From an uncultured delta proteobacterium (GTDB lineage Bacteria; Desulfobacterota; WTBG01): 64,000 nucleotides of DNA. The stretch covers positions 463,457 to 527,456 of the forward strand of contig CAWCBP010000001.1 in NCBI GenBank assembly GCA_963793865.1. The letters are read 5' to 3'. Below, one piece after another: positions 16,521 to 63,861 of this stretch (position 1 is the first letter of the stretch; each line of letters opens with the position of its first letter). The translations under genes were made by a program, and so were the position numbers. The notes beneath the pieces were generated by a model. That model was not told the origin of the DNA. It did not search any database and saw only the letters and a list, made by a program, of their open reading frames with translations.

Positions 16521-16584
16521 GGGCTTTCTCCTCAGGCAGGCTTGTAGGCGCAAATCCGGAATTCGAAGCGAAATTCGAAAAAAT

Positions 16585-16735
16585 GACAAAGTTCAAATAA
16601 CAAAATCCAAATGAAAAGTGACAAAGCTCAAATGACAAAAAGTTCAAAACAAACCCGTTCGCTTGGCTGGTTTGATTATTGGTCATTTGTTTTTTTTCAT
16701 TGTTTTGAACTTTGCATTTTGCACTTTGACATTCA
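16585..16735. repeat. AT-rich imperfect long inverted repeat (about 45-nt arms) between the serpin and the NlpC/P60 gene
   Basis: The left arm ...GTGACAAAGCTCAAATGACAAAAAGTTCAAAACAAA and the right arm TTTGTTTTTTTTCATTGTTTTGAACTTTGCATTTTGCACTTTGAC are near reverse complements. Local GC is about 30%, against about 60% for the window. Confidence 0.5.
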
Positions 16736-41749: not shown

Positions 41750-42017
41750 TTCGAATCCCATACCGGATCCCCGCTTTCGCGGGGATGCCGGTCGGTGAAA
41801 GGGAATTCAGTCCTTCCCACACCCCCCATCCGGTTCTAATAAAGTGCACACCCCGAAAGCATTAAAGTATTAACCCCATGCTGTCGATAACAGTGAGTGC
41901 ACAATATAATACCATTTCCTGACCATGCATACGCCGCCTTACCCGGTTACTTCTTTAATCAAACGGCTGCAGTTGACGTCCTGACCTCAGGCTTTGGAAG
42001 CTTGCCAAGGGGAGCAC

Positions 42018-43520
42018 ATGAAAGGGAAGAACAAGTTTAACGATCCCAGGCTGCAATTTATTTCCAATATTTCATCCCTGGTGACCTCGGTTTTTGACCT
42101 GGACCACCTGCTGGGAATGATCATTGAATCCGCCACCGAGGTGATGAAAGCCCGGGCCAGTTCGCTGCTGCTGCTTGATAAAAAAACCGATACGCTCTAC
42201 TTCCAGGTCGCCACCGGGGAAAAGAGCGATGACGTGAAGAAATTTGAAGTCGGCCTGGGTGAAGGCATCGCGGGATACGTGGCAAAAACGGGCAAGCCGC
42301 TGCTGGTGGAGGATGTCAGCACGGATGCCCTGTGGGATAAGAAGATAAGCGAGTCCATCGGCTTTGATACCACATCCATTGCCTGCGTCCCCATGAAGAT
42401 CGGTGAGGAAGTGATCGGCGTGGTTGAAATTATTGACCGGGAGGACGGCAATCCCATCCGGCGGGAGGACATGGAAATGCTGGAGGCCTTTGCCAACCTG
42501 GCGGCGCTGGCCATCGTCAAGGCAAAGGAGTATCGCAAGGTCATTGATGAAAATGCAGGCCTCAAAAATCAGCTGGAGATGAAATACCGGATTGTGGGAG
42601 AGAGCAAGGAGATACAGAAGGTGATTACCGACGCCCTCAAGGTGGCCAATTCCAAGACCACCGTCTTGATTGAAGGGGAGAGCGGGACGGGCAAGGAGCT
42701 GCTGGCGCGCCTGATCCACCGGTCCGGGCAGCGCCGGGACCAGCCCTTCGTGATTGTCAACTGCGGCGCCCTTCCCGAAACCCTTTTGGAGGCCGAGCTC
42801 TTCGGCCATGAAAAGGGTTCCTTCACCGGCGCGCTCTACAAGAAGATCGGGCTGTTTGAGACCGCCGACGGCGGCACCATATTCCTCGACGAAATCGGCG
42901 AGATGAGCCAGACCATGCAGGTGAAGCTGCTGCGGGTCCTCCAGGAAGGCAGCTTCAACCGCATCGGCAGCTCCGTGCCCATAACCGTTGATGTCAGGGT
43001 TGTCTCCGCGACCAACAAGCAGTTAAATAAGATGACCAGGGAAGGCAAGTTCCGCGAGGACCTGTTTTACCGGCTCAACGTGATCCAGTTGAAGATTCCT
43101 CCGCTCCGGGAGCGCCGGGAGGACATTGGCGTGCTGGCGCACTACTTCCTGCGCAAGTATACCAGCGAGCGGGGCCTGCGCAAGCTGGAGTTCTCATCGG
43201 AAGCCATGAAGGCAATTTTGAGCTACGACTGGCCGGGGAATGTGCGCGAGCTTGAAAATGCCATCGAGCGGGCGGTGGTGATGGGCGACGGGGAAAAGAT
43301 CGGCGTTGCGGACCTGCCCATCGGCAAAACCGATTCAGGACTGCAGAGCGGGGTGGAGGTGGGGATGACCCTGAAAGAGGCTCAGGATATTTTCAAAAAG
43401 GAGTTTTTGACCAAGACCCTGGCCTACACCCACGGCAACCGGAAAAAGGCTGCCGATATCATGGGGATTCAGCGCACCTATCTCTCCCGGTTGATCAGTG
43501 AATTCAATTTGCGGCTGTGA
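42018..43520 (+). CDS. Sigma-54-dependent transcriptional activator with N-terminal GAF domain and C-terminal Fis-type HTH
   Basis: GESGTGKE, the GAFTGA-loop region (GSFTGA) and [13 protein letters not shown]-terminal ...[22 protein letters not shown] before the ATG at 42018. Confidence 0.9.
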
Positions 43521-43826: not shown

Positions 43827-44140
43827 GACAATGCCCCTCCCTGACCTATACACAGCCTAAGCCTCAGCATGGTGCCCGCCGGCCGTGCGCAGTCTCTTTC
43901 ACCGCTTACGATCCAGACATATCCCGAACAATGATGCATAAATATATTTGCAAGCTCTGTGCCAGGCGGCACGCGGCTGCCGGAAGCATAATCCTCGTGC
44001 GCATCAATGATACGCCCCGATAGTATGGCTACCTGGTATATAAAAGTGCAATGAATGAAAAAAATGAGTATACAACCGTGAGCCGGTCCGGTGAGACGAT
44101 AAGGATTGAGTGCCCCGGGGAGAAAAGATTGGCGGGAGGT

Positions 44141-48700: not shown

Positions 48701-48777
48701 GGCGGTGTAGCTCAGGTGGTTAGAGCATGCGGCTCATATCCGCAGTGTCCGGGGTTCAAGTCCCTGCACCGCCACCA
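48701..48777 (+). tRNA. tRNA-Met (anticodon CAT); could alternatively be tRNA-Ile2 (lysidine-modified CAT)
   Basis: Cloverleaf with 7-bp acceptor stem GGCGGTG/CACCGCC, D-arm TAGCTCAGGTGGTTAGAGC, anticodon loop CTCATAT, T-arm GGGGTTCAAGTCCCT and 3' CCA. 77 nt. Confidence 0.85.
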
Positions 48778-49033: not shown

Positions 49034-49204
49034 GTGATTCGCATTGACAGGGAAAAGTGTGTTGGGTGCGGCGGGTGCGTGGATCTCTGCCCCCGGACGG
49101 CCATCTGTTTTGTCAAGGACCGCGCATTCGTGGATGTGCAGCTCTGCCTGGAGTGCCGGACATGCGTGAAAGTCTGCCCGGTGAAGGCGCCGTCAGAGGT
49201 GTAG
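49034..49204 (+). CDS. Small 2x[4Fe-4S] ferredoxin (56 aa)
   Basis: GTG start with an AAGGAG RBS. CVGCGGCVDLCP and CLECRTCVKVCP motifs. Too short to be in the ORF track. Confidence 0.65.
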   Translation: MIRIDREKCVGCGGCVDLCPRTAICFVKDRAFVDVQLCLECRTCVKVCPVKAPSEV

Positions 49205-49271
49205 GTTTGCGGTCACGGCGATTATGAACATGGTTCATGGTTAGTGCAGGTAAACTTTTTGCAAAGGAGAT

Positions 49272-49559
49272 GTGATTTTGGAATCGACTGCGGGATTTCA
49301 GAAAAAGATGATCAGCTGCTCGTTGCTTGATCAGGGCCGGGGCATGCCATTTCGGCCGGGAGACGCGCGGGAGTGGACGCCGGAGTGGGACAAGGACAAG
49401 TGCATCCGCTGCGGGCTCTGTTTTGTGTACTGTCCCGACGGCGCGGTGTTCCGCAATCAGGAGGGTTATTTTGAAGCTGATACCGACAAGTGCAAGGGCT
49501 GCGGCATATGCCACCGGGAATGCTGGTTCGGGGCCATCAGCATGTTCAAGGAGGAATGA
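49272..49559 (+). CDS. 2-oxoacid:ferredoxin oxidoreductase delta-subunit-like ferredoxin (PorD-like)
   Basis: N-terminal extension followed by CIRCGLCFVYCPDGAV and CKGCGICHRECWFGAI. About 95 aa. Confidence 0.6.
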   Translation: MILESTAGFQKKMISCSLLDQGRGMPFRPGDAREWTPEWDKDKCIRCGLCFVYCPDGAVFRNQEGYFEADTDKCKGCGICHRECWFGAISMFKEE

Positions 49560-49561
49560 CA

Positions 49562-50287
49562 ATGGATAAGTACAGTCTCTATGTTTCTAATTTCCTGCCT
49601 TGCAAGGAATACTTCAGCCCTGAGCTGAACCAGGCATGCCCGGGCTGCGGGCTGGCGCTGGCCATCCGCCAGACATACAAGGCCCTGGGCATGAGCATTG
49701 AAAAGGGGGCCTGGGCGTCAGCAGAGCATGGAAAGGCCGGCGCTGCCGGTTCCGGGCTCTTTGGAACGGGCGCAACCGATGTCACCTTTTTGACCATTCC
49801 CAAGGCCCGGGGGAAGCTGGTGATCTGCTGCGATAACGAAGCGGGCGGATCTCTCGCCGACCTGCTTGAGAAACCCATGCCCCAGCTCGCCGCGTCACAG
49901 GGTTTCAGCTATGTGGCCACGGCCTGTCCCAGCTATCCCTTTGACCTGTACGACAAGATGAAGCGGGCCTTCAAAAGCACTGCCGACGCCTATGTGCACG
50001 TGCTCTGTCCCTGCCCGCCGGGCTGGAAGTTTGACGCGGATTTCACGGTGAAACTGGGGCGGCTGGCGGTGGAAAGCCGGGCATTCCCCCTGTATGAAGC
50101 GGGCGCGGGCGCGTACGGCCTCACGGTGAAGACGGGGAAGCCCAGGCCGCTTGCCGACTATCTCAAGGCGCAGGGGCGGTTTGAAAAGCTGAGCGAGGGG
50201 GAAATGGCCGAGGCGCAGGCATCGGTTGACCGTGCGTATAAACATCTGGAAGGCATGATACAGCAGTATCTCGACGCGGTTGCGTAA
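49562..50287 (+). CDS. 2-oxoacid:ferredoxin oxidoreductase beta-subunit-like (TPP-binding, PorB-like), divergent
   Basis: N-terminal ACPGCG and C-terminal LCPCPPGWK....RLAVESRAFPLYE match PorB. The canonical GDG TPP motif is degenerate (GTGATD...DNEAGGS). No alpha or gamma subunit nearby. Confidence 0.5.
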   Translation: MDKYSLYVSNFLPCKEYFSPELNQACPGCGLALAIRQTYKALGMSIEKGAWASAEHGKAGAAGSGLFGTGATDVTFLTIPKARGKLVICCDNEAGGSLADLLEKPMPQLAASQGFSYVATACPSYPFDLYDKMKRAFKSTADAYVHVLCPCPPGWKFDADFTVKLGRLAVESRAFPLYEAGAGAYGLTVKTGKPRPLADYLKAQGRFEKLSEGEMAEAQASVDRAYKHLEGMIQQYLDAVA

Positions 50288-50330
50288 GATGAGTGTCCCG
50301 GCTTCGGGATATCGTTGAAAGGAGCAGGTA

Positions 50331-51080
50331 ATGTCTAAGAGTACGAGGATGAAACCAGGCGCAAAGAAGAGCTCACAAAAAAAGGCTTCGTCTCCTGCGA
50401 CTGCTCAAGCGCCCCAGGCTGCGGCCCCGGGCTCATGGGCGGGCAGCAGCAAGGCCATGTTTGAGCTCATGATCAAGGAGGTGCCGGAATCGCTGCAGGA
50501 TGTGTTCCGGGTGAAACTGATGGATATACTCGGGCAGAAGGCGAAGGGCGGTGCCTACCAGGAAGCCCAGGTTGTGGAGATCGTCAATGAAATCGTGCCC
50601 GAGCCGTTCAAGTCCAACATCCTCAAGGGTTTCGCCACCATGGGGGGTGTTGACATAAGCCTGGTTGAAGGCATCGTGGCTTCATATCCCGGCGGCCAGG
50701 AATCCGTCCCCGCCATACTTCACGCCCTGAAGGCCAAGTTCGGCCATGTGCCGGAAGAGGCGCTGCGGGTGGTGAGCCAGAAGAAAAATGTGTTCATGAG
50801 CACCCTCTACCGGCTGGTGACCTCATTCACGGCGTTCCCAACCGATTTGCCCAGGAAATACACGGTGAGCGTCTGTGACGGCACGGGGTGCCACCTCAAG
50901 GGCAGCGCTTCAATGCTGAAAAAGCTTGAGGAGAAAGCGGCCTCGCCGGACGCGGACATTAACTTGGAAAAGGTGAGATGCCTGGGCTGCTGCGACCTTT
51001 CGCCCGCGGTGCTGGTGAACGGTGAAATGTACAGCGGTGATGATGCCCATGCCAAGATTTCAGAAATGTTAGGTGAATGA
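50331..51080 (+). CDS. NuoE/HoxF-N-like [2Fe-2S] thioredoxin-fold electron-transfer subunit with N-terminal extension
   Basis: VSVCDGTGCHLKGS and RCLGCCDLSPAV cysteine pattern. About 100 extra N-terminal residues with a Lys-rich start. Confidence 0.7.
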   Translation: MSKSTRMKPGAKKSSQKKASSPATAQAPQAAAPGSWAGSSKAMFELMIKEVPESLQDVFRVKLMDILGQKAKGGAYQEAQVVEIVNEIVPEPFKSNILKGFATMGGVDISLVEGIVASYPGGQESVPAILHALKAKFGHVPEEALRVVSQKKNVFMSTLYRLVTSFTAFPTDLPRKYTVSVCDGTGCHLKGSASMLKKLEEKAASPDADINLEKVRCLGCCDLSPAVLVNGEMYSGDDAHAKISEMLGE

Positions 51081-51093
51081 TAAAGGGGAGTCT

Positions 51094-52804
51094 ATGAAAC
51101 AGGATAAACCGCTTGACCTGAACGCGATACAAAAGAAGGGGCTCAGCATGCTGGCGCCGGCGCGTGCCCGGATTACCGTCGGCATGGCAACCTGCGGATT
51201 GGCCAAGGGCGCGGGGAAGATTTTTGAAGCCCTGAAGTATGAGATCAAGAAGCAGAAAGCCAAGGCTGACCTGGTGGTGGTGGGGTGCAACGGCCTTTGC
51301 TATGCCGAACCCATTGTTGAAGTGATCTGCCCGGGAAAGCCGCGCATCACCTATGGCCGGGTGAGCGTGGAACGGGTTCCTGACCTGGTGGCCTCGGTGG
51401 CAAAGGGAGGCGTGGTCAAGGATCTGGCCCTGATGAGGATGGACCGGTTAACCGCGGAAGGCGGTGCATCGATCAAATATGCCGGGGCGAAGGTCCCCAA
51501 GGACGCGGCCGCGCTCAAAGAATGCGGGAAGCTTGATTTTTTCAAAAAGCAGATGAAGCTCATCAGCAAAAACGCCGGAACGGTCAGCCCGGAGCAGGTT
51601 GAGGAATACTGCGCGCTGGGCGGCTACCAGGCGCTGCTGAAAGCCGTTACCTCCATGAGCCCGGATGAGGTCATCAGGGAAGTAACCGTGTCCAAGCTCC
51701 GCGGCCGGGGCGGCGCCGGATTCCCGGCGGGCATTAAGCTGCAGGCATGCCGTCAGGCGGCCGGGGATGCCAAGTACATTGTCGCCAACGGCAGCGAAGG
51801 CGATCCCGAAATCGGCATGCACCGGAGCTTTCTGGAATCGGATCCCCACGCGGTCATAGAGGGGATGGCCATCGCCGGCTACGCGGTGGGTGCATCGGAA
51901 GGCTACATTTATTTGAATGACCGGTACCAGGTGGCCCACGAGCGGCTCACCCGGGCCATCGAGGGGGCGGAAGCCCTGGGACTTATCGGGAGCAATATAG
52001 CGGGTTCGGGATTTTCTTTCTCCCTGCGGGTGAAGCGGGGAGGAGGCGCGTACGTGTGCGGCGAGGAAACGGCGCTGCTCAACGCGCTGGAAGGCTCGTT
52101 CGGCGAGCCGAGACCGCGGCCCCCGTATCCCGCGGAGAGCGGGCTTTTCAACAAGCCCACCGTGGTCAACAATCTCGAGACCCTGGCAACCATTCCCGCC
52201 ATTATCGCCGGGGGCGGGGAAGCGGTACGCGGGCATCGGCACGCCGGGCAGCACCGGCACGAAAATCGTGGCCCTGTCCGGGCATGTGGCCAGGAGCTGC
52301 TGGGTGGAGGTCCCGCTGGGCATGGAGATCGGGGAGATCATTGAAACCTTCGGCGGCGGCGCCGCCAACGGAAAGAAGATAAAAGGTTTCCAGGCGGGAG
52401 GCCCGTCAGGCGGCATTCTGCCGGCCAAACTGCTGAAGATCAAGCTTGACTACGATCGCCTGGCCAAGGAAGGAAGCCTGCTGGGTTCGGGCGGGCTGGT
52501 GGTCATGGATGAGGATACTGACCTGCTGGAGATGGCAAAATTTTTCACCGACTTTTTTGCCGACGAGTCCTGTGGAAAGTGCAGCATCTGCAGGGAAGGC
52601 ACCAAGCGGCTCCAGCAGATCATCACTGATGTGATGGAAGGGCAGGGAACAAGCGAGCACATCGCCCTGGTCAAGCGCCTGGCATCAGCACTGTCGGATA
52701 CCGGCGCCTGCGCCCTGGGCAAAACCGCAGCGGTGCCCTTTATATCGGTGCTCAACCATTTCCCGCAGGTGATCGAAGGCAAACTGCTCAGGAAGAAAGC
52801 GTAA
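51094..52804 (+). CDS. NuoF-like NAD(H)-binding FMN/[4Fe-4S] flavoprotein subunit with N-terminal thioredoxin-like domain, carrying an apparent frameshift at about 52225
   Basis: GRGGAGFPAGIKL, then after the frame switch GTKIVALSGHVARSCWVEVPLG and the 4Fe-4S motif ESCGKCSICREG. Confidence 0.8.
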
Positions 52805-52844
52805 GGTCATAAACGGCGTAGCGATACGAGAGAGGATGATATTT

Positions 52845-53783
52845 ATGGTGAGCTTAAAGATAAATGGAAGGAAGATAAAGGCAGCGGAGGGCATGACCAT
52901 CCTTCAGGCGGCGCGGGTCAATGACATTGAGATACCCACGCTGTGTTCGAATGACGCGCTCAAGCCCTATGGCGCCTGCCGCCTCTGCGTGGTGGAGATC
53001 GGGAAAAACGGGAGGGTGACGGTGGACACATCCTGCACCTACCCGGTGAGCGACGGGCTGGAGGTGCAAACCAACACCCCCCGCATCAGGGAAGCGCGCA
53101 AGATGATTCTCGAGCTCCATCTGGCGCGCTGCCCCAACGTGCAGATTGTCCAGGAGCTGGCCGCGGAGTACGGGGTGACCGAAAGCGCCCAGCAGATGGG
53201 AAAGGATAATGAGTACTGCATACTCTGCGGGCTGTGCGTCCGCGCCTGCAACGACGTGGTCAAGGCGGGCGCCATCCAGTTTGCGGGACGCGGCCCGGGC
53301 AAGATGGTGGACTCGCCCTTCAGCAAGACCGCGGATGACTGCATTGCCTGCGGCTCATGCGCCTTTATCTGTCCCACCGGCATCATCAAGAAAAATGACC
53401 TGTTTTCCACCGCGCTCTGCACGCCGGACGGATGCGATCAAACCGGCCCGCAGCGCGAGATCCTGAACTGGAAGGTGGAGCACAAACTGAAGTGCTGCAA
53501 AAAGTGCGGCAATCCCTACGCGCCGGAGCCGCATCTGGAAAAGGTGAAGCGGGAAAAGAATCTGCCCAATGAATTTTTTGACATCTGCCCCTCGTGCCGG
53601 CAGTATCCGGTGGTTGACCCGGACAAGTGCCTGGGCTGCGGCGGCTGCATGGAGAACTGCCCCTGCGGCGCGCTGGAGCTCGAGGACAAGGGCGGTTATG
53701 ATAAAAAGGCGCAGCTCTATCCGCAGAACTGCACCGCCTGCCACAGCTGCGAGCTCATCTGTCCCATGCAGGCCATCAGCTAG
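52845..53783 (+). CDS. NuoG-N-terminal-like [2Fe-2S]/[4Fe-4S] iron-sulfur subunit (ferredoxin-type and His-ligated cluster domains only; no molybdopterin or H-cluster domain)
   Basis: I.INGRKI......TILQAA...IEIPTLC....L.PYGACRLCVVEI, CILCGLCVRAC, CIACGSCAFICP and CLGCGGCMENCP. Confidence 0.7.
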   Translation: MVSLKINGRKIKAAEGMTILQAARVNDIEIPTLCSNDALKPYGACRLCVVEIGKNGRVTVDTSCTYPVSDGLEVQTNTPRIREARKMILELHLARCPNVQIVQELAAEYGVTESAQQMGKDNEYCILCGLCVRACNDVVKAGAIQFAGRGPGKMVDSPFSKTADDCIACGSCAFICPTGIIKKNDLFSTALCTPDGCDQTGPQREILNWKVEHKLKCCKKCGNPYAPEPHLEKVKREKNLPNEFFDICPSCRQYPVVDPDKCLGCGGCMENCPCGALELEDKGGYDKKAQLYPQNCTACHSCELICPMQAIS

Positions 53784-53832
53784 AGAGTTGCCCCAATTCT
53801 GAATGACTATGTAAGCATCCAAGGAGGAAGTA

Positions 53833-55131
53833 ATGACGGTTTACGATCTTGCCATTGTGGGCGCCGGTCCCGGAGGTGTGCATGCTGCCAAGTGGGCGGC
53901 CAAGAAGGGGCTCAAGACGATTCTCATTGAGAAGCGCAAAGACATCTCCAAAATCACCCGTTACTGCAGCGAGCATTTGATACTCGATGAAGGCTATAAC
54001 GGGGATACGGTTTTGGTGGATCCTAAAAAAGGCACCATCACCTCGACGGCGAACGGGTGGGTGGTTGACTATAAAGGCGGTTTGTTCCCCTGCATTGATA
54101 AATGGTACTACTCTCCCAAGGGCAGGGCCATCCACTTCGCCTGGCCTGACCGGCGGCCGTATGCCTACAAGTACGACAAGGGCTTTCTGCTGGGGAGCCT
54201 GCTCGAGGAATGCCTGGCGCTGGGGGTCACCTTCCAAAATGAAACCAGCGGCTATGACGCGGTCGACAGCGCCCAGGGGGTCGAGATCAAGTGCGTGAGC
54301 AGGGGAAAGAAGGAGAAGGTGAAGGCGAAAAAGCTCATCATCGCCGACGGGTGCAACACCCGCCTGGGGCAGGCAATGGGTTTCAACGCCAGCCGCGGTT
54401 ACATGGGCTTTGCCCTGTGCATGGCCAGCTACATGTCCGGCGTGAAGAAATACAACCCTGAAGAATGGGTGCTCTGGTACGGCAGGTGCTACGGCTCAAA
54501 TCTCGCCCCCATCATCGGCACCGGGCCGGCCGGCCATTTTGAGGACTGGGCGGATGTGATCAACCTCGGCAGCCCCCGGGACCTGCCGGTGGAGGCATTT
54601 GGCCGGTTCACCAAAAACAGTCCCATAGCCGACCGGTTTGCAAACGCCAAGGTTGAAGAGCGGTACTGCTGTTCGGTCAAGGCCTTTACCCCCATTGCCC
54701 GTCCCTATAAAAGTAATACTATAATTATAGGAGATTCTGCCGCGTTTGTTGAAGTGCAGGGTCAGGGGGCTCTGAGCTGCGGTTATAAGGCCGCGGAGGC
54801 GGTTGCCAGGGAACTCAAGGGTGAAAAGGGGTTCGAGGAATACGCCGACTGGTGGCTTAAATCGTTTGAGTTCAATGACAAGGGGATGATGCAGGTGCAG
54901 CAGGGATATGCCTTTGTGCCCACCTATACCGATGACGAGCTTGACTACCTTTTCGGCCTGTGTGAGGACGTGCTCCTGGACGGGAGCTTCAGCCAGTACA
55001 AGTCATCCCGGATGATATGGGACGCAATCCTGCGCGACCCGAAGAAAATTGAGCGGGAACACCCCGCCACCTATGCAAAAATCAAGAGCGTCCGCAGCAG
55101 CACCCTTGAAAGCAGCCTCAAGGACGGCTAA
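53833..55131 (+). CDS. FAD-dependent oxidoreductase, geranylgeranyl-reductase-like fold
   Basis: YDLAIVGAGPGGVHAAKWAAKKGLKTILIEKR dinucleotide-binding motif. About 430 aa. AAGGAGGAAG RBS. Confidence 0.65.
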   Translation: MTVYDLAIVGAGPGGVHAAKWAAKKGLKTILIEKRKDISKITRYCSEHLILDEGYNGDTVLVDPKKGTITSTANGWVVDYKGGLFPCIDKWYYSPKGRAIHFAWPDRRPYAYKYDKGFLLGSLLEECLALGVTFQNETSGYDAVDSAQGVEIKCVSRGKKEKVKAKKLIIADGCNTRLGQAMGFNASRGYMGFALCMASYMSGVKKYNPEEWVLWYGRCYGSNLAPIIGTGPAGHFEDWADVINLGSPRDLPVEAFGRFTKNSPIADRFANAKVEERYCCSVKAFTPIARPYKSNTIIIGDSAAFVEVQGQGALSCGYKAAEAVARELKGEKGFEEYADWWLKSFEFNDKGMMQVQQGYAFVPTYTDDELDYLFGLCEDVLLDGSFSQYKSSRMIWDAILRDPKKIEREHPATYAKIKSVRSSTLESSLKDG

Positions 55132-55154
55132 GACGCGGGCGTTTGCTGAATCAA

Positions 55155-55190
55155 ACAAAAGCCGGGGATTTGCTTCCCCGGCTTTTGTTC
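55155..55190. terminator. Bidirectional rho-independent terminator (AAAAGCCGGGGA-loop-TCCCCGGCTTTT) between convergent genes
   Basis: A 12-bp stem flanked by an A-run and a T-run, between the FAD oxidoreductase (+) and the outer-membrane protein gene (-). Confidence 0.7.
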
Positions 55191-55206: not shown

Positions 55207-56388
55207 CTAGAAGCGGTACATCACGGTGGGGGCGATGGCGAAAAGACCGGAAAAATTTGATCCCATGTCCAGCACCAGCTGAAATGACGGCGACAGTTCG
55301 ATGTTGGTTCCAATGTGCGTGCTCCACGGTTTCGAGGTCTTCTCCCGCACCCTGAACTTGACCGTACCCAAAACCGGAACGCGGGGGTCCCCCTTTATGG
55401 TGTTGGTGGTATCCCAGTAGGTTTCCCCCAGCCAGAGGTTGAGCTTACAGTCAGCCGCCTGCGTTCTCCAGCCGAGGCGGACGGAGTTCAGCATCGCCTT
55501 CACATCAGGGCTCAGGCTGTTGCCCAGGGGAATATTTCCCTGCAGCGCGCTGATGGTGTAATTCCAATCGTATGAGGCAAAGAATTTTTTATATCCCCCG
55601 ACGAGGGTGTAACCCACGCCGTAGGTGACGCCGGTCAGGTCAATGTGTATGTCAAGATCCCGGGGGTGTTTGCCAAACCGCTTGCGCAGGCGATCGTAGG
55701 GGGCAAGGCCTACTGAAGCATCGGCATCCTCGCGGGTGTACCCGAACAGCCCATAGACGTTCAAAAAGGGGAACAGCCAGGCGTCAAGGCGCAGCGCCCA
55801 GTTCAGCTCCCTGCTCTTCACCTTGATGTCGGTCAGCCCGTCCACGGCAATGGCCCGGCCCTTGATGGAAACCTGCGCGTCGCTCACGCTGATGTGCCGC
55901 CTGCCGTGATAGAAACTCGGCATTACTCCGAAGGCAAGGGGAAGGGTATGCCCCTTTGCTTCAGCCTCCTCTCCTAAAATCGGTAAAATCGTTTGCCATT
56001 TATGTGACGGGTTTGACCCCCCGGTGCCGGCGTCGTCAGCGGCAGCATCAGGTGCAGCGGCCTGCCGGTGCGCATCACCGTTCTCCGCGTTCTGTGCAAT
56101 CATGCTGCTCAGCCGCAGCTGCAACGGGTCTGAAGTTTCTGTTTCGTCAAAGAGAGGAAGCCGTGAGTGCGGTTTAATAACGCCATTCTCCTGTAATGGC
56201 GTATCCTCGATTATTGCTGCATGATTGGACAGCACCGGTTCATTTTCTGCCGACACGATAAGAGGCCGGATGATAATCATGGATAAAATAAAAATGGCGC
56301 ACCTGCACAGACTGCACAACGTCTCAAAGCGCGCGCCTGAATGAGTCCCGGATGTTTTTATCGGAGGGTATGGAAAGCACATTATCAT
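55207..56388 (-). CDS. Putative outer-membrane beta-barrel protein (porin-like)
   Basis: C-terminal ...TVMYRF with a terminal Phe and alternating amphipathic beta-strand patterns. Hydrophobic signal-like segment near the N-terminus. The start is uncertain. Confidence 0.5.
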   Translation of the reverse strand: MIMCFPYPPIKTSGTHSGARFETLCSLCRCAIFILSMIIIRPLIVSAENEPVLSNHAAIIEDTPLQENGVIKPHSRLPLFDETETSDPLQLRLSSMIAQNAENGDAHRQAAAPDAAADDAGTGGSNPSHKWQTILPILGEEAEAKGHTLPLAFGVMPSFYHGRRHISVSDAQVSIKGRAIAVDGLTDIKVKSRELNWALRLDAWLFPFLNVYGLFGYTREDADASVGLAPYDRLRKRFGKHPRDLDIHIDLTGVTYGVGYTLVGGYKKFFASYDWNYTISALQGNIPLGNSLSPDVKAMLNSVRLGWRTQAADCKLNLWLGETYWDTTNTIKGDPRVPVLGTVKFRVREKTSKPWSTHIGTNIELSPSFQLVLDMGSNFSGLFAIAPTVMYRF

Positions 56389-56694
56389 ATCTATGGTCTG
56401 TTGCTATAATCAAACAGAAAGAAGAATTCGATTTACGGAAAGTTGTATTTATCGGTTGACAGAGGCTCAGGCGGATGATAGTTAATTTCGAACCATAGCG
56501 CAGCCCTTATGAATAAAGAAAGCGGATGTAAGATATGGTAGCAGAATCCGAATGGGCAGTCAAATTTTTATGGAACTATTGTAGTGAATGCCGTTGCATT
56601 TGAGGGGCCGGCCCCGGTCCGTTGCGTAACGGCAGCGTGAGGAAATGAAGGCGAGGCCGGACAGGAATACCCACCGTGCGAGAGGAGTTTGGTT

Positions 56695-57462
56695 ATGGCA
56701 AAGGTAGCATGGAATGAGATGACTGCGTTCGCAAAAGTTATTGTGGAGGATTACAAGCTGTTTGAAGGACTGGAGCTGGTGCCGCTTGAGACCTACCAGG
56801 GCATGGACACCAGGCCGGCCTGGGAGTTTAAAACCCCCATGGCCACCGGCTTCTACAAGCCGTACCTCATCAAGGGAAGCGACCGGATCGAGAAGATCAC
56901 CATCGGGGAGCTGCATTACATGGGACGGGCCAAGTACTGCGCCCTGAACATGACCGCGAGCAACGATTACGACCTGCCCATCTATGCCTGCGAGTTTGAC
57001 GAGACGGCGCCGCGGGTGGGCGTGACCATGGATTTAATGCCCACGGTGGACATCGCCCGGCACGAGGAGTACCTGCAAAAATACTACCGGGAGATAGCGC
57101 CGCTGTGGCGGAAGTACCGAACCATACCCGGATTTACCCTTGAAGGCCGCTGTCTGGTGCAGAGAAGGTACGCGCCCTGGCCCTGGGCGCGCGAGTCGCT
57201 CTCTCCCTTCAGCCTTGACGGGCGGGTGGAGGAGAAGGAGGACCGGGTGAAGCTGATGGAGGCGGTGGTGGCCTATGCCCGGGTGTGGCTTAACCTGCTG
57301 AAGAAGGCGGAGCCCATCCGGGATGAGGGGTACCGGCAGGAGATGCTGCGCAGAAAAAGCAAAACCCAGAAATATTACCGCGATCTTGACCCGGGCGGAG
57401 AGGTGATGAAAAAGATTTTCGGCGCGGAAAAAAGCCACCTCTTCGTGAGCCTTGTCTTTTAA
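56695..57462 (+). CDS. Hypothetical protein, paralogue A; weak resemblance to ferredoxin-dependent bilin reductase (FDBR/HY2) family
   Basis: RBS GAGAGGAG. YDLPIYACEFDE...VGVTMDLMP resembles the FDBR motif LP.FG.D.V....AI.DLSP. Paralogous to the next gene. Confidence 0.35.
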   Translation: MAKVAWNEMTAFAKVIVEDYKLFEGLELVPLETYQGMDTRPAWEFKTPMATGFYKPYLIKGSDRIEKITIGELHYMGRAKYCALNMTASNDYDLPIYACEFDETAPRVGVTMDLMPTVDIARHEEYLQKYYREIAPLWRKYRTIPGFTLEGRCLVQRRYAPWPWARESLSPFSLDGRVEEKEDRVKLMEAVVAYARVWLNLLKKAEPIRDEGYRQEMLRRKSKTQKYYRDLDPGGEVMKKIFGAEKSHLFVSLVF

Positions 57463-57475
57463 AGGAGGTAGAGAA

Positions 57476-58204
57476 ATGGATGCAGGCGTAAAATGGACAC
57501 CCTATCTGGAAAAAATGAAGGGATTGATTGATTCGCTGCAGCCCACCGCGCTTCAGGAGTGGAAGGGGCAGAATCTTGCGCCCGCCCTGGAGTTTGCCAG
57601 GGGCCAAGCGCGGGGAGGGTTCAGCGCATACCGCGCTGACAAGCTGGAAAAAATAGGCATCGGCTCATTTGTCCATGCCGGCAACAGGCACTTTGCCTTC
57701 TGCAGCATCATGCCCGGGGAAGCCTATGACCTGCCCCTGTTTCTCTCGCGTCTCGATGAGGGGCCGGAGGAGGTCATTTTCCTGGTTGATATCATCCCCG
57801 CGGTGGACAGCCTGGTGGATGAGGAATACCGCAAGAAGTATATCGAGTCGGTGCAGCCCCTCTGGGACCGGTTTGCCGCCCTGCCCGGCATCTGTCCCGA
57901 GGAAAGCGATGTCATCCGCTCACTCGCCTCCATCATTTACACCGCGGCCCGGGTTCCCATCGAGAAGGAGGGGATGCGCCTGGCGGCCCTTGCCCCGCAC
58001 ACTGAATATCTCAAGAGCTACCTCGCGTTTCTTCCCGAGGCGGTGCCGGTTACCGATGAGGCGAAGAAAAAGGAGCTGGCGGCAAAACGCGCGGCGCTGC
58101 GCGCAACCCTGCGTGCCCATTTTTTCAAGGAAATGCTGCCGGGTCCGGCACGGGAAGAACTGGGTGATGGCATGATCGAACTGCTTAATGCTGTCTATTT
58201 TTAG
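57476..58204 (+). CDS. Hypothetical protein, paralogue B of the preceding gene (FDBR-like?)
   Basis: RBS AAAGGAGG. YDLPLFLSRLDE...IFLVDIIPAVD...PLWDRF parallels paralogue A (YDLPIY..EFDE...TMDLMP...PLWRKY). Confidence 0.35.
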   Translation: MDAGVKWTPYLEKMKGLIDSLQPTALQEWKGQNLAPALEFARGQARGGFSAYRADKLEKIGIGSFVHAGNRHFAFCSIMPGEAYDLPLFLSRLDEGPEEVIFLVDIIPAVDSLVDEEYRKKYIESVQPLWDRFAALPGICPEESDVIRSLASIIYTAARVPIEKEGMRLAALAPHTEYLKSYLAFLPEAVPVTDEAKKKELAAKRAALRATLRAHFFKEMLPGPAREELGDGMIELLNAVYF

Positions 58205-58217
58205 GGAGGGATGAGAC

Positions 58218-58628
58218 ATGTCGGTTATGGAAATGCTTGCGGCAGGAGCCGATTTTACCAACGCGGATGAAACGGCGCAGGGGATGATGGCTGATTTCAG
58301 CGACCACAAGGTGGGCATGAAGCTTGACGCGGACGAGTTCACCCAGGTGGTAAAAGACGGCAAGCTCTATCTGGAGCAGGGGATCCGCGAGGACTGCCAC
58401 GTGGTGCTGAAGCTGAAAACGGCCGATCTCTGCAGCGCCATCGACAACACCTTCGATCTCATGGAAATCAAGGACAAGGGGGAGCTGTTGAAGGGCGATA
58501 TGACCGATCCCAACGTTCCCGTCCACCTCATGGCCACCTTTCCCTTTTTCGATGCCATGGTCCGGCTGTATGAATCCGATCCCCGCTTTAAAAAAATGGT
58601 TGATGAGGTTAAGTCTACTTTGGGATGA
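58218..58628 (+). CDS. Small protein, possibly SCP2 sterol-carrier-like lipid-binding fold
   Basis: 136 aa with the pattern ...HVVLKLKTADLCSAIDNTFDLMEIKDKGELLKGDM.... A weak call. Confidence 0.3.
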   Translation: MSVMEMLAAGADFTNADETAQGMMADFSDHKVGMKLDADEFTQVVKDGKLYLEQGIREDCHVVLKLKTADLCSAIDNTFDLMEIKDKGELLKGDMTDPNVPVHLMATFPFFDAMVRLYESDPRFKKMVDEVKSTLG

Positions 58629-58640
58629 GGTGCCCTGCAT

Positions 58641-58847
58641 ATGGTGAAACATCTGGTCGATCTGGAAAAGTGCCGCGGCTGCGGGCAGTGCCTTGAGCAG
58701 TGCGGACTGGAACTGTGGGTTCTGGTGGAAACACCGGACGGAAAGAAAAAAGCCAAGGCAATCGAAGAGGCGGGCATGATCTGCCACTGCTGTCTTTCCT
58801 GCCAGGACGCCTGCCCGGAAAAAGCGATCACCATTCTTGACGAGTAA
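58641..58847 (+). CDS. 2x[4Fe-4S] ferredoxin (68 aa)
   Basis: CRGCGQCLEQC and CHCCLSCQDACP motifs. Confidence 0.65.
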   Translation: MVKHLVDLEKCRGCGQCLEQCGLELWVLVETPDGKKKAKAIEEAGMICHCCLSCQDACPEKAITILDE

Positions 58848-58924: not shown

Positions 58925-60273
58925 ATGCCCAGGGAATATGATCTGGTGGTGGTCGGCGCGGGGCCTGCCGGTTTGATGGCCGCCAAAACAGCAGCCGAAC
59001 ACGGGCTGAGCGTGGCCCTGATCGAGCGGAAAGAGCACATTACTGATATCAACCGTGCCTGCAGCATGATGGTGGTGACCCTGACCGGGAAATATCTGGA
59101 GGAGCGGGTACGCTTAAACAGCCGGGACAGGAAGCTTTGCTTCCCGGGATACGGTTTTACCGTCAACTATGACGGCCCCCACCGTGACTTTTACACCTGG
59201 GCCATATACTCCCACCGGGGCAACAAAATTCAGCTCGGCAACTATGAAGAGAACGAGCGCAAGGGCGAGAGCGGCAGGGTGAGCGCGACGTACGATAAGG
59301 GGGCGCTGCTGCGCTGCCTCCTGGAGGAGGCCCGCGCCCTGAAGGTTGATGTCTACAACCCGTATAATGTAATCCGGACCGATCTGCAGGGAGGCAGGGT
59401 GACGGTTTTCACCCGCGAGGGAAGATCCTTCAGGGGCACCTTCGTCATCGCCGCCGACGGTCGCGCCTCCAGAATAGCCCACACCCTGGGCTGCAACCGG
59501 GATCGGAAGTATTTCGGCACTGCGGTGACCCTGGGGTATGAAATGGTGGGGGTAAAGCCGCCGGAAAAATTTGCCCTCTTCCAGATATTTCTCGACGAGA
59601 CACCTTCCAAGCGGGTGTGGATGACGCCGCGGACGACGAAGGACACCTACTTCGTCATGACCACCTCGCTCACCCCCGGCGCAGACCTCGCGGGCGCCTT
59701 TGAGCGGTTTTCGAAAAAGGGTTTTTTCGCGCTCCTGGTTCGAAAAGGCAGAGATAAAGCGCACCCTGACTTCCGCGGGCAACGCGCTCTCACACATAGT
59801 CGATCCCTACAAGGACCAGGTGCTGCTTGTCTCCGACGCGGTGTGGTGCCAGGAGGCGGAGATGACCGGGGCGGTCATCAGCGGCTGGAAGGCGGCCAGC
59901 TGCCGTCAGCTTCGCCCTGGCCGATGGAAAGATATCGCGGGAAGGGGTTTCATCCTACCTCCGCTGGTGGAAAGAAGAGGTGCTGGATAAATACGATTAC
60001 CGGAGCATGATGCGCAATGCCGTGCTTCCCCTCCGGCTCACCCCTGACGAGATTGACTTCGTGCTGAGCCTGGTTAAAAAATCACTGCCCAGCATCCTTG
60101 ATCCTTATGAGACCCCCAAGCTGGTCGGCGGCGCCCTGGCGGAGATAATGCCGGCCGTTGCCAAACAGCGGCCCGCCATTCATCAGAAGCTTGCAGGGAT
60201 GCGCAATGTGCCGCTGGCCGCCGTTTTTGACGGATGCATCAGGGCGGGCTTCCCCATGCAGGCCCGCGGCTAG
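58925..60273 (+). CDS. FAD-dependent oxidoreductase (geranylgeranyl-reductase-like), paralogue of 53833-55131, with two apparent frameshifts (about 59722-59727 and about 59895-59905)
   Basis: YDLVVVGAGPAGLMAAKTAAEHGLSVALIERK. The C-terminal half is recovered in three frames colinear with paralogue 1 (AFERFSKK / SRSWFEKAEIKR...PYKDQVLLVSDA...GWKAA / SYLRWWKEEV...). The first shift is at a T6 run. Confidence 0.7.
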
Positions 60274-60369
60274 CCGCCCCACTGCGGCGATAATCCGGGA
60301 CGAGCAGTCAGCGGGGTGCAGCACAATGCCTGCCACACCCCGCCTTTCATTTTCCCCGCCCTTTCCACA

Positions 60370-62101
60370 ATGATGCGCAATGAGCATGACTCCTCCGCTG
60401 AAAAGAAAAAAATAATTCCGGCACGGCTGCCGGAGGGAATGTACCAGGCATTGGAAGCATGTCGTTGGCAAGGAGTGGATTTCCCGCGACCGGGCGGTTC
60501 TGGAAACCTACAGCAAGCTCTCGCTCGACGCGGAAGGGTTTTTAAAGAAGCACGCCCGGAACGGCTCAAGCATTCCCGCCTGCGTGGTGCTGCCGGGCGG
60601 CACCGATGAAGTGCGGTCCGTGGTGAGGATCGCCCGGCGATACCGGGTTCCCGTCATACCCTTCACCAACGGCCAGATGATGAGCGCCCCCACCTTTCCC
60701 GTTCCCATGCTCTGCATTCACCTGAGCCGGATGAACCGGGTGCTGGCCATCGATGAGCAGCTCATGACGGCCACGCTTGAACCCTATGCGGACTACGGGC
60801 AGCTTCTGGCCGAGGCTGCAAAAGTGGGGCTCTGGAATGGAGGGACGCCGCTGGCAACCACCCTGTGCAAGCTTTCGTCCCAGGTGGCCTTTGCGGGCAT
60901 CTGGCAGACCAGCAAGAAATACGGCCTGCTGGACAGAAACATCGTGGACATAAAGCTGGTGCTGCCCACGGGTGAAATCATGAGCACCGGTTCCCCCGCG
61001 GTTGCGGGCGTTGACCGCGTATGGGAGAGCGGACCGGGCCCTGACCTCACCGGGGTGGTGCGCGCCAGCGCCGGGACCACCGGCATCATTACCGAGGTGA
61101 CCGTCAAGCTGCACACCTGGGTCGGCGGGGAGCTGATGCCGGAACCGCGGGCGGGAAGGCCCTGCATTCCCTGCTATGCCGATGAGCGCTACGACCATGC
61201 CCCCGCGCCGCCCCGGCACCGCATCCACTGGATAGAGTTTCCCGACTGCGAATCCGAAATCAGGGCATACCGGGCCATCGCCCACGCGGGCATCGGCATC
61301 GGGCTCAATGCCTCGGGGGTGTATTCCTCCTATTACTGCTCCCCAACCCAGAAAATGACCGAGGAGCGGGCGACGGGCAATTTTTTCCCCGCCTTCAACC
61401 TCTATGTCATCTGCGCGGGCATCGTATCAGAGGGCCAGCTGGCCTATGAGGAAAAGGTGCTCAGGGAGATAGCGGAAGAGCAGGGCGGCAGGTTTCTCTC
61501 CCGCGACCATAAGCCGGAGGTGCTGCAGGCGCTCGCCCCGTGGAACCTGGACTGCATCAGGAATGTCTGCGGCTATCGCATGAACCGGCGCATGTACGCG
61601 GGCGGGAGCCTTCCCGCGGGTCCGCCCGAGGTGGCCCTCTATCACAGCCGGCTCTGGCGTGAAGTGCTCGAGCGCTTCGGTGAGACGCACGTCACCGACC
61701 GCGGAGGGGCGGAAACGACCCCCTTTGTGTACGGCATAGAGCCGGCGGGGCGCTACACCCTCTCGGAGACGGATATCTACCCGGATCCGATGGACCCTCA
61801 TTCGCTGGAACAATGCGTCGCCATTACCATGTACAGCGCGGTTAAAAATGGCGCCGAGCGGCACTGCGCGCCCTTCGGCTTCGGCGGTCCGGCTGAACCA
61901 TTGGTCACCTTTTTCCCCGAGCAGGGTCCCAATGTCCATCTCCTGCTGAGAAAATTAAGAAAGGTCTTTGACCCACAGGGCATCTGCAGCCCCGGCAGGC
62001 AGGTGCTTACCGAGGAAGAGCTCAAGGAATATCCGGCGGAGGCGGTTGCCAGACTGAATGAACTGCGGAAGTTTTTTAACATGGGCACGATTGAAAGGTA
62101 A
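60370..62101 (+). CDS. FAD-linked oxidase (FAD-binding PCMH/GlcD-type fold), paralogue 1 of 3; N-terminus carries an apparent frameshift at about 60458
   Basis: The N-terminus MMRNEHDSSAEKKKIIPARLPEGMYQALE continues, after a shift, as DVVGKEWISRDRAVLETYS...CVVLPGGTDEVRSVVRIA. This is colinear with paralogue 3 (KAKVIPNRVSREVFQALQDVVGPEWISEDRAV). The start codon is uncertain (60316 or 60370). Confidence 0.6.
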
Positions 62102-62388: not shown

Positions 62389-63861
62389 ATGGCGCTGACA
62401 CGGAAACAGCTGGTGGATATTTTTGGCGATAAGCGGGTTATGGACGATGCCGCAACGCTTGAGGCATATTCCCATGATCAGTCCTTTGCGCCGAAACGCA
62501 TGCCTGATTTTGTGGTGTTCCCCGGGACGGTCGAGGAAGTGCAGCGGGTGGTGAGGCTGGCCAATGAGACCCGGACCCCGCTCATTCCCTACAGCTCGGG
62601 ATTGAATTTTCATGGCGCGGCCCTCCCCGACCACGGCGGGATAATCGTCAACCTTTCGCGCATGAACAGGATCATTCAGATCGATGAAGAGAACTGGTCC
62701 GCGGTAATTGAACCGGGGGTTACCTATGCGCAGCTCCAGGCCGCCCTGATGGAAAAGGGATTCCGGGTGATGATTCCATTCGGCGTGCCCCCCGGGCGTT
62801 CCGTGCTTACCAGCTTCCTGGAACGGGATCCGGTCATGGCGGCGCCCAGCTTTGAATCGGGCAATTTTCTCATCATGGACACCGAGATGGTGCTTCCCGA
62901 CGGCGAGCTGTTTAAAACCGGCACATGGTGCGCGGGGGGCGCTCCGGGAGGACCGCTGGGCCCGGTGAGAAACGTCATCTTCCGCCTCTGGACCGGCGCT
63001 CAGGGCACACTCGGCATCATGACCAAGATGAATGTCAAGATTGAGCCTTTTATCAAGGAACGGAAGATGTATTTCTTAAGCTTCAACGCGCTGGCTGATG
63101 CACGTGAGCCTTTGAAAAGGATACAGCGGAGGGAAATCGGCCTGGAGTGCTTTCTCCTGAACCGGTTTAACCTGGCTTCCCTCGTGAGCCATGAGTGGGC
63201 GGTGCCGGATACATTCCCCGCCGCACCCAAACCTTCCGAGAGCTTTGAACGATACCGGGGCATTCTCCCGGCCTGGGTGCTGGCACTCTGTATTATCGGT
63301 GCGCCCAGACATCCCGAGGAAAAGATTGCCTATGAGACAGAGGCATTACAAGAGGTGTGTCACGGTCTTAATGTCGAAGTTAAAGAAACCATTCCCCAGG
63401 TGAGCGGGTTGAGCCGGCTGATGCTCAACGAGATTCTTTATCCCTGGGGTATTCTCAAGAAATTCAATTACCGGGGATCGGTGCACAGCCTGAGCTTTAA
63501 ATGCTCGCTGGGGTCGCTGGCGGAGATGGAAGAGATTGTGCGGAACGAGTGCGAAGCGGCCGGTTACAGCGTATCTGCTTTCGGCGGTTACCTGCTCCCG
63601 CTGGAACGGGGCAGGGCGGTGCACTGTGAGTTTGACCTCCACTGTGACCTGAAGAATGATCCGGAAGCCCGGAACGTTAAGAACCTCTGGACCGGGACCG
63701 CGCAGACACTGATCAACCACGGGGCATATTTTGACCGTCCTTACGGGCCGTGGGCGGAAATGATCTATGGGCGGGCGGGTGAGTATACCACCAAGCTTCG
63801 GCAGATCAAGCAGGAGCTTGATCCCAACGGCATTCTCAACCCCGGAAAATTGTGCTTCTAA
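62389..63861 (+). CDS. FAD-linked oxidase (FAD-binding PCMH/GlcD-type fold), paralogue 2 of 3
   Basis: VVFPGTVEEVQRVVRLANETRTPLIPYSSGLNFHGAALP...LSRMNRIIQIDEENWSAVIEPGVTYAQL (FAD_binding_4-like). The C-terminal ...LDPNGILNPGKL is typical of this superfamily. Confidence 0.7.
   Translation: MALTRKQLVDIFGDKRVMDDAATLEAYSHDQSFAPKRMPDFVVFPGTVEEVQRVVRLANETRTPLIPYSSGLNFHGAALPDHGGIIVNLSRMNRIIQIDEENWSAVIEPGVTYAQLQAALMEKGFRVMIPFGVPPGRSVLTSFLERDPVMAAPSFESGNFLIMDTEMVLPDGELFKTGTWCAGGAPGGPLGPVRNVIFRLWTGAQGTLGIMTKMNVKIEPFIKERKMYFLSFNALADAREPLKRIQRREIGLECFLLNRFNLASLVSHEWAVPDTFPAAPKPSESFERYRGILPAWVLALCIIGAPRHPEEKIAYETEALQEVCHGLNVEVKETIPQVSGLSRLMLNEILYPWGILKKFNYRGSVHSLSFKCSLGSLAEMEEIVRNECEAAGYSVSAFGGYLLPLERGRAVHCEFDLHCDLKNDPEARNVKNLWTGTAQTLINHGAYFDRPYGPWAEMIYGRAGEYTTKLRQIKQELDPNGILNPGKLCF

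Follow-up and report, generated by a model that had tools for sequence, protein, structure and literature searches.

Within a 64-kb stretch of DNA from an uncultured delta proteobacterium, probably an anaerobe of the sulfate-reducer type (contig CAWCBP010000001.1, assembly GCA_963793865.1), we found two adjacent genes, A and B, coding for proteins of the superfamily of ferredoxin-dependent bilin reductases (FDBRs), enzymes known for producing pigments of algae and plants. They are followed by the genes of p136, a protein with sterol-carrier-protein-2 (SCP2) fold, and of Fd68, a ferredoxin of 68 aa. The whole stretch is referred to as the window and all positions are given in its coordinates (Table 1). 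We rate the chance as slightly better than even that the four genes represent one operon for a reductase module that depends on ferredoxin and belongs to the FDBR/RCCR structural superfamily. The clade, the presumed pairing of a catalytic with a non-catalytic paralogue, the SCP2 and ferredoxin partners and the restriction to probably anaerobic lineages appear to be new, as no description was found in the searched literature. FDBR homologues in heterotrophs (pre-PcyA) are already known, and relatives from Schekmanbacteria have been mentioned as an outgroup.

Two adjacent paralogues with FDBR fold

The first-pass annotation of this DNA had proposed two neighboring paralogues of about 250 aa with motif-level resemblance to FDBRs, each preceded by its own Shine-Dalgarno sequence, and this description holds. 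Gene A extends from an ATG at 56695 to a TAA stop at 57460-57462, with GGAG located 7 nt upstream. The mechanical list of open reading frames puts the start at TTG 56689; we assigned it to ATG 56695 because all homologues begin with MA(K/R)V. Gene B, with AGGAGG directly 3' of the A stop, follows after a gap of 13 nt (ATG at 57476, end at 58204). The motif pattern noticed in both proteins is real, being represented by YDLPIYACEFDE, MDLMP, and PLWRKY in A and by YDLPLFLSRLDE, VDIIP, and PLWDRF in B; these YDLP...,.D..P, and PLW motifs form the conserved core of the A/B alignment. The two proteins (255 and 242 aa) share 27% identity over 195 residues in BLASTP (E 8e-24), and comparison of their family profiles by hhalign resulted in a probability of 99.9% (E 2.5e-33). 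Judged by sequence comparison, A and B are paralogues with a resemblance far beyond chance.

A matched the Pfam family Fe_bilin_red (PF05996) with 52.3 bits (E 7.7e-14), above the gathering cutoff of 31, while B stayed below it (23.7 bits, E 4.4e-5); many B orthologues carry a precomputed PF05996 match. A match of A to RCC_reductase (RCCR, PF06405) remained under the Pfam cutoff of 24.9. Searching all PDB sequences with a profile of 27 A sequences retrieved HY2 of tomato with E 1e-12 and PebB of Guillardia with E 1.4e-8, whereas PcyA sequences reached only E 0.1-0.5. The AlphaFold2 model of A (pLDDT 90, pTM 0.90) matched the HY2 and PcyA structures in Foldseek (E about 1e-11, TM 0.74). It displays an alpha/beta/alpha sandwich with a central antiparallel sheet, as is common to RCCR and to the coproporphyrinogen oxidase that depends on oxygen (CPO). 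A has the FDBR fold, and the initial reservation that the similarity might be spurious was dispelled for this protein by the profile match above cutoff together with the fold.

A and, by its homology to A, also B are members of the FDBR superfamily, yet not orthologues of any named enzyme, because they score far too low in the PebA/PebB equivalog models (NF009720, NF009722, NF009723), with 25-27 bits for A and 16-33 bits for B against cutoffs of 263-327. PebA/PebB orthology is ruled out by these scores. Of the suggested likeness to the cyanobacterial PebA/PebB pair, the side-by-side arrangement of two genes for FDBR-fold proteins with a presumed common substrate stands. However, PebA and PebB belong to separate FDBR lineages, each with its catalytic Asp residues, whereas B has lost the catalytic acids.

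Active-site residues

The sequence of Synechocystis PcyA, confirmed against PDB 2D1E, was aligned to the A profile and subsequently together with 20 other sequences. At the position of PcyA Asp105, A carries Glu100 as part of a Cys99-Glu100 pair invariant across the 27 A sequences. This residue sits on the central strand, where PcyA, PebS (Asp105), and pre-1 (Glu91) have their proton-donating Asp or Glu. Asp232 of A is located within a "DPGGE" motif of the C-terminal helix and corresponds to HY2 Asp256, PebS Asp206, and PcyA Asp220; it is replaced by Ser in a subclade of solo A-like genes. B has variable residues at the Asp105 position (Arg, Gln, Leu, Tyr, or Phe; Arg92 in the window) and no Asp at the Asp220 position. 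In this alignment, A retains both the central-strand acid and the Asp of the C-terminal helix, and B has lost both. At a distant related locus (L037), one FDBR-like paralogue has Asp at the PcyA Asp105 position, the other Ala.

The catalytic set Glu76-His88-Asp105 of PcyA, the conservation of which had been put forward as a check, is only partly represented: A has an acidic residue at the Asp105 position, but Gly71 and Ala83 in place of Glu76 and His88. A PcyA-type active site is ruled out by this alignment. A is plausibly catalytic, because its residue pattern (Glu at 105, neither His88 nor Glu76) matches that of active pre-1 enzymes; B is plausibly not catalytic in the same way. According to Frascogna 2026 (PMC13446030), pre-1 pre-PcyA enzymes with Glu at the Asp105 position reduce biliverdin to 3E-phytochromobilin, with one pre-1 FDBR at first appearing nearly inactive.

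A tightly packed module with an SCP2-fold protein and a ferredoxin

The genes A, B, p136, and Fd68 are tightly packed, with spacings of 13, 13, and 12 nt, and co-conserved. In about 24 out of 27 related loci with enough flank, B, p136, and Fd68 were found after A (tblastn), and every pair-type locus whose flank is long enough has Fd68 following p136. The ferredoxins expected around the pair are present, with Fd68 two genes downstream and two further ferredoxins plus a NuoE/NuoF/2Fe-2S block upstream. The 2x[4Fe-4S] ferredoxin gene within the operon gives indirect support to a possible ferredoxin-dependent, cofactor-free reduction of a bilin.

Within the module, p136 shows the highest conservation (67-97% identity). 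Its product has the alpha/beta fold of SCP2 lipid carriers, with no sequence-level match to Pfam SCP2. From SCP2-fold carriers such as UbiJ it differs by this missing match and by an invariant Asp-Cys-His (Asp59-Cys60-His61) plus two further His (His30 and His103), all invariant in the close family. A bilin-binding globin (BBAG) was considered for p136 and ruled out, the fold being SCP2. A metal or a metallo-tetrapyrrole could be ligated by these Cys and His; the distant homologue of L037 lacks the Asp-Cys-His motif. To our knowledge, an SCP2 protein paired with an FDBR-fold protein has not been described before, and the SCP2-like carrier represents a new obligatory partner of FDBR-fold proteins.

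Compared with the 97%-identical locus of the metagenome-assembled genome (MAG) MFD02979.bin.2.54 (L005), the A-B-p136-Fd stretch (2153 bp) contains 84 substitutions and no indels, with ratios of synonymous to nonsynonymous codon differences of 26:7 in A and 12:12 in B. Based on the lack of indels and these counts, the genes are intact and selected, and A is under strong purifying selection. This also bears on the possibility that A and B are ligand-binding or chaperone pseudo-enzymes without redox chemistry, which would sequester or traffic a pigment. The loss of the acidic residues in B, the absence of His88 and Glu76 from A, and the at first nearly inactive pre-1 FDBR (PMC13446030) point in this direction. 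With Glu100 and Asp232 conserved in paired A proteins, the purifying selection on A, and a ferredoxin gene within the module at all evolutionary depths examined, we nevertheless regard it as quite unlikely.

A sigma-70-like promoter candidate falls in the divergent intergenic region upstream of A, and a strong terminator-like hairpin parts the operon from an upstream redox block. The scan for sigma-54 promoters revealed none upstream of A or of this block. The sole perfect sigma-54 consensus, TGGCACAGAGCTTGCA, is found at 43949-43964 (-), beside a gene for a GAF-domain sigma-54 activator (41994-43520, +).

Distribution and genomic context of related loci

A search of 1.84 billion representative proteins with a profile hidden Markov model resulted in 130 matches at E<=1e-3, 50 of them at E<=1e-10. 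A and B group within a cluster of ~30 bacterial representatives, the next groups being the plant HY2/PebB cluster and three RCCR representatives. For both proteins, the closest relative outside their own families is OGL44139.1 from Candidatus Schekmanbacteria (35% identity and 133 bits for A, 30% and 117 bits for B); further cluster members originate from Dehalococcoidia and Thermodesulfobacteriota MAGs. The homologues in the cluster look-ups are recorded as "hypothetical protein," save one automatic "phytochromobilin:ferredoxin oxidoreductase" from a Dehalococcoidia MAG. A neighbor-joining tree, calculated without support values and serving as a rough guide only, places OGL44139.1 in the same uncharacterized bacterial clade as A/B. 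This agrees with Rockwell et al. (2023, PMC10151467), who placed Schekmanbacteria sequences "between FDBRs and RCCRs," in the RCCR outgroup. OGL44139.1 is encoded by a single gene, with no B, SCP2, or ferredoxin gene seen within 6-8 kb, and no description of its genomic context was found in the literature searched.

A scan of species-level genome contigs yielded 30 loci (designated by L numbers), all in uncultured MAGs and none with a cultured host. The labels are mostly Thermodesulfobacteriota or "delta proteobacterium," and a genome often carries two loci. The loci stem from lake, hydrothermal, and spring sediments as well as Danish soil/sediment long-read bins, with groundwater hosts occurring, too. 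Judged by taxonomy, sample names, and ferredoxin-rich gene content, the hosts are probably anaerobic. Frequent neighbors among the 30 loci are genes for geranylgeranyl-reductase-like (GGR-like) flavoproteins (14 loci), VAO-type flavoproteins (11), MFS and BNR proteins (10 each), MMPL and DUF1302 (9 each), and DUF1329 (8); a chemoreceptor gene is linked in three loci. The DUF1302/DUF1329/BNR/MMPL(RND) set has been tied to fatty-ester and monoterpene handling in Pseudomonas and Castellaniella.

The succession of an FDBR-like and an SCP2-like gene is found again in distant relatives. L037 (8001-12622) encodes, in this order, an FDBR-like protein, an SCP2-like protein with 28% identity to p136, a ferredoxin, a 78-aa ferredoxin-like protein, a second FDBR-like protein, another ferredoxin, and a B12-binding radical SAM protein. 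In L038, two FDBR-like genes are each followed by an SCP2-like gene, with GGR-like, VAO-type, MMPL, and BNR genes nearby. Homology of the SCP2-like proteins of both loci to p136 was confirmed by BLAST. L039 has the order UbiD, FDBR-like, 141-aa protein, VAO-type, and CCG-domain gene; its 141-aa protein gave no BLAST match to p136 and resembles the L038 proteins by eye only. The L037 stretch also carries an anaerobic ribonucleotide reductase (NRDD). Upstream of the FDBR-like genes of L038 (3180-4505) and L024 (8371-9688), an adjacent pair of 210-222-aa paralogues is encoded, 41-61% identical across the loci; the L024 copies have no Pfam match and show Arg-containing signal-like N-termini (RREFGKK / RRGFSKK).

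A second locus type comprises a solo A-like gene with Ser in place of Asp232 and without B, SCP2, and ferredoxin genes (L033 8165-12113; L034 8052-12077; L025, L026, L027). Two adjacent HemF-like paralogues of 250 aa precede it (PF01218 Coprogen_oxidas, 39-42 bits against a cutoff of 31.8), and an MFS transporter homologous to the one beside the Schekmanbacteria gene (32% identity) comes after it. One genome can hold both locus types, L034 and L005 being from the same MAG. In the solo loci, three members of one tetrapyrrole-binding superfold are found side by side, which is the best hint of tetrapyrrole-related substrates. HemF-like proteins are unexplained in a presumed anaerobe. At L028 (7943-9886), a 647-aa fusion of Old Yellow Enzyme and pyridine-nucleotide-disulphide reductase is encoded directly upstream of an A-like gene, with the contig ending just after A. 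We take its architecture to be that of 2,4-dienoyl-CoA reductase and the gut bilirubin reductase BilR.

Proposed mechanism and candidate substrates

Within the proposed reductase module, the substrate, bound in A, would receive its electrons one at a time from Fd68, in the way of the cofactor-free radical chemistry of FDBRs, and would be protonated by Glu100 and Asp232, leading to the two-electron reduction of a conjugated C=C bond. B would act as a non-catalytic or differently specialized partner of A; as RCCR is dimeric, one might picture an A/B heterodimer. A poorly soluble substrate would be delivered, or the product removed, by p136, further redox steps would be performed by the GGR-like and VAO-type flavoproteins, and the MFS and RND/DUF1302/DUF1329/BNR genes would serve to carry the compound across the envelope. 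The physiological role of such a module could be catabolism, an electron sink, or biosynthesis.

The leading single candidate for the substrate is a pigment derived from a tetrapyrrole and taken up from anoxic sediment or soil, because tetrapyrrole binding is common to all members of the FDBR/RCCR/CPO fold characterized so far (PMC13193486); on its own, we give this reading about one chance in three. Candidates of this kind include a bilin, a phyllobilin or chlorophyll catabolite, an anaerobic heme-breakdown product, and the side chain of a cyclic tetrapyrrole. Several observations weigh against this assignment and the mechanism behind it. His88 and Glu76 of PcyA are absent from A. Neither heme oxygenase, ChuW-type enzyme, phytochrome, BBAG globin, nor V4R protein was found in the window or the annotated related loci, the scope for heme oxygenase (PF01126) being the window open reading frames and the Pfam-annotated loci L001-L004 and L035-L039; consequently, a bilin has neither a visible local source nor a visible local consumer. 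The SCP2-like, GGR-like, VAO-type, UbiD (L039), MarR/TetR, and RND/DUF1302/DUF1329 genes fit a lipid-like, phenolic, or isoprenoid substrate at least equally well. Furthermore, the anaerobic lifestyle is deduced from taxonomy, sample names, and gene content, the mechanism draws on homology and gene order throughout, and the A/B heterodimer is a guess.

In line with these observations, the fold might have been recruited for a non-tetrapyrrole. The module would then serve anaerobic catabolism, or act as an electron sink, by reducing a hydrophobic conjugated compound; candidates are polyenes or isoprenoids, quinones, vinyl- or alkyl-phenols, and phenolic lipids. This would account for an obligatory partner with the fold of a lipid carrier, for nearby flavoproteins resembling GGR and VAO/eugenol oxidase/p-cresol methylhydroxylase, and for UbiD in L039. 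It is likewise consistent with the MarR/TetR regulators, the RND/DUF1302/DUF1329/BNR transport sets, the chemoreceptor gene in three loci, the several paralogous loci per genome, and the lack of a heme oxygenase nearby. On the other hand, such a recruitment would break with the tetrapyrrole binding of all characterized members of the FDBR/RCCR/CPO fold (PMC13193486), HemF-like genes flank the solo A-like genes, and the flavoproteins gave just generic FAD-domain matches, all of them under the family cutoffs. We consider this alternative possible, but clearly short of an even chance.

Alternatively, a hydrophobic molecule of the cell's own, for example a modified lipid, a quinone, or a reduced tetrapyrrole cofactor, may be built by the module instead of being degraded, and MMPL/RND proteins would export it to the envelope. 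Proteins of this family can export, as exemplified by AmeD of Castellaniella, described as an apolar monoterpene efflux transporter (PMC6394551), and an LCM-type methyltransferase and DUF2284 in L038 as well as the B12-radical SAM protein in L037 would suit a biosynthetic pathway. We regard this as unlikely in view of the variable mosaic context, the catabolic-type regulators (sigma-54 activator, MarR, TetR), the chemoreceptor gene in some loci, the multiple divergent copies per genome, and the patchy spread over few uncultured lineages.

Comparison with known systems

Classical bilin biosynthesis, in which A/B would convert biliverdin into a phytobilin chromophore for a sensor or globin in the manner of PebA/PebB or HY2, is, in our view, very unlikely. 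HY2 and PebB are the nearest solved relatives of A, the gene pair superficially resembles pebA-pebB, Glu100 and Asp232 recall the patterns of active pre-1 enzymes and of HY2, and GAF-domain proteins occur in the window. However, the identity to the HY2/PebB lineage amounts to only 17-19%, and the PcyA Asp105 and His88 positions are occupied by Asn and Asp in HY2, but by Glu100 and Ala83 in A. This lineage is found in plastid-bearing and cyanobacterial organisms together with heme oxygenase and lacks the paralogue-SCP2-ferredoxin operon of A/B. The absence of heme oxygenase, phytochrome, BBAG globin, and V4R from the window and related loci, the PebA/PebB equivalog scores about 10 times under the cutoffs, the lack of catalytic acids in B, the transporter/flavoprotein/SCP2 context, and the multiple copies per genome all speak against this scenario. 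In addition, the O2-requiring heme oxygenase reaction is unlikely in Thermodesulfobacteriota of sediment, soil, and groundwater.

With the pre-PcyA systems, A/B share the FDBR fold in non-phototrophs, the clustering with an Fe-S protein gene, and, as regards A and pre-1, Glu at the Asp105 position without His88 and Glu76. Pre-1/pre-3 clusters contain heme oxygenase, a BBAG globin, two V4R proteins, and an Fe-S protein (Rockwell 2023, PMC10151467). A cluster of this type is ruled out for the A/B loci, which hold no heme oxygenase, BBAG, or V4R gene and instead encode SCP2-like, ferredoxin, GGR-like, and VAO-type proteins and transporters. In sequence, A is distant from PcyA and closer to HY2/PebB and RCCR-related bacterial sequences. 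RCCR itself is a plant and algal plastid enzyme acting downstream of an oxygenase, and, as stated above, A does not reach its Pfam cutoff. Literature searches on PF05996/Fe_bilin_red and on bilin reductases in sulfate reducers yielded nothing relevant, and the supplements of two 2026 FDBR papers showed no matching accession or taxon. Two uncharacterized clades, which may or may not include that of A/B, are mentioned in PMC13193486.

[quoted passage not shown] A coherent, selected clade of FDBR-fold proteins in ferredoxin-rich operons of probably strict anaerobes bears directly on this proposal. Carried to its full extent, the reductase module would comprise a two-paralogue FDBR-fold enzyme with the catalytic acids in one subunit only, loaded by an SCP2 protein and fed by ferredoxin, which reduces environmental tetrapyrrole pigments without any O2-dependent step in Thermodesulfobacteriota, with relatives in Schekmanbacteria and Dehalococcoidia. 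We put this forward tentatively, as a rather doubtful proposition in its entirety. If true, it would constitute an anoxic pathway of pigment degradation or pigment respiration and a counter-example to the O2-dependence proposal, and would affect ideas on the place and time of the fold's origin. A tetrapyrrole-derived substrate would offer a first access to the anoxic processing of bilins and chlorophyll catabolites, the flux of which is very large; with any other substrate, this would be the first case of an FDBR-fold enzyme taken over for a non-tetrapyrrole. The four genes make up a small, soluble module.

Flanking genes in the window

Table 1. Features of the window around genes A and B
Feature	Position	Strand	Remarks
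Upstream accessory redox block	49034..55131	+	Two ferredoxins, truncated OFOR-beta-like, NuoE-like, NuoF-like, 2Fe-2S/4Fe-4S protein, GGR-like flavoprotein 1 (GGR1)
Bidirectional terminator-like hairpin	55154..55189	.	Strong, 15-bp stem; from terminator scan
393-aa protein, possibly outer-membrane beta-barrel	55207..56388	-	Weak OMP_b-brl match; divergent to A
Sigma-70-like promoter candidate	56382..56410	+	TTATCA-17-TATAAT with TG; 10/12 consensus matches; pattern match only
FDBR-like protein A	56695..57462	+	255 aa; putative catalytic subunit; invariant Cys99-Glu100, Asp232
FDBR-like protein B	57476..58204	+	242 aa; divergent paralogue without both acidic residues
p136, SCP2-fold protein	58218..58628	+	SCP2 alpha/beta fold
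Fd68, 68-aa 2x[4Fe-4S] ferredoxin	58641..58847	+	Presumed electron donor; Fer4 matches, two CxxCxxCxxxC motifs
GGR2, geranylgeranyl-reductase-like FAD flavoprotein	58925..60273	+	TIGR02032 GG-red-SF 76.6 bits, below cutoff of 158.8
VAO1, VAO/GlcD-type FAD-binding flavoprotein 1	60316..62101	+	GlcD-like FAD_binding_4 match
VAO2, VAO/GlcD-type FAD-binding flavoprotein 2	62389..63861	+	490 aa; NCBIfam glcD 90.9 bits, below cutoff

Downstream of the module, GGR2 is frameshifted in the window by single-base insertions at 59733 and 59901, whereas it is intact with 448 aa in L001 and L005. The N-terminal part of VAO1 apparently lies in another frame, with indels at 60394 and 60455 relative to L005. 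With E values between about 1e-25 and 1e-20, and in the FAD domain only, VAO2 matched PDB sequences of D-lactate dehydrogenase, eugenol and vanillyl-alcohol oxidases, and p-cresol methylhydroxylase. The PDB sequence searches with GGR2 and VAO2 gave generic FAD-domain matches only and did not narrow the substrate.

Upstream, the 393-aa protein, conserved only in the closest loci L001, L005, and L011, had no PDB sequence match. The redox block is present in only about 5-9 related loci, the closest ones, and does not belong to the core; a possible function is the supply of electrons from NADH to ferredoxin. Its NuoF-like gene (51073-52804) is frameshifted at 52216 relative to L005. The single-base indels in the flanking genes may represent residual long-read assembly errors, some being located in homopolymer runs, or real pseudogenization. 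A 241-aa protein of the block (49562-50287) is homologous to the C-terminal half of OFOR beta only (oxalate oxidoreductase 5c4i_C, E 1.5e-28). Its gene follows that of a PorD-like ferredoxin, with no alpha or gamma subunit present, and the protein may be a repurposed electron-transfer protein with Fe-S/TPP domain. A tRNA-Met (CAT) at 48701-48777, just upstream of the ferredoxin/NuoEF block, marks the left edge of the redox cluster. Farther away, the window encodes a full-length bacterial serpin (15291-16589, -; Pfam Serpin 416 bits).

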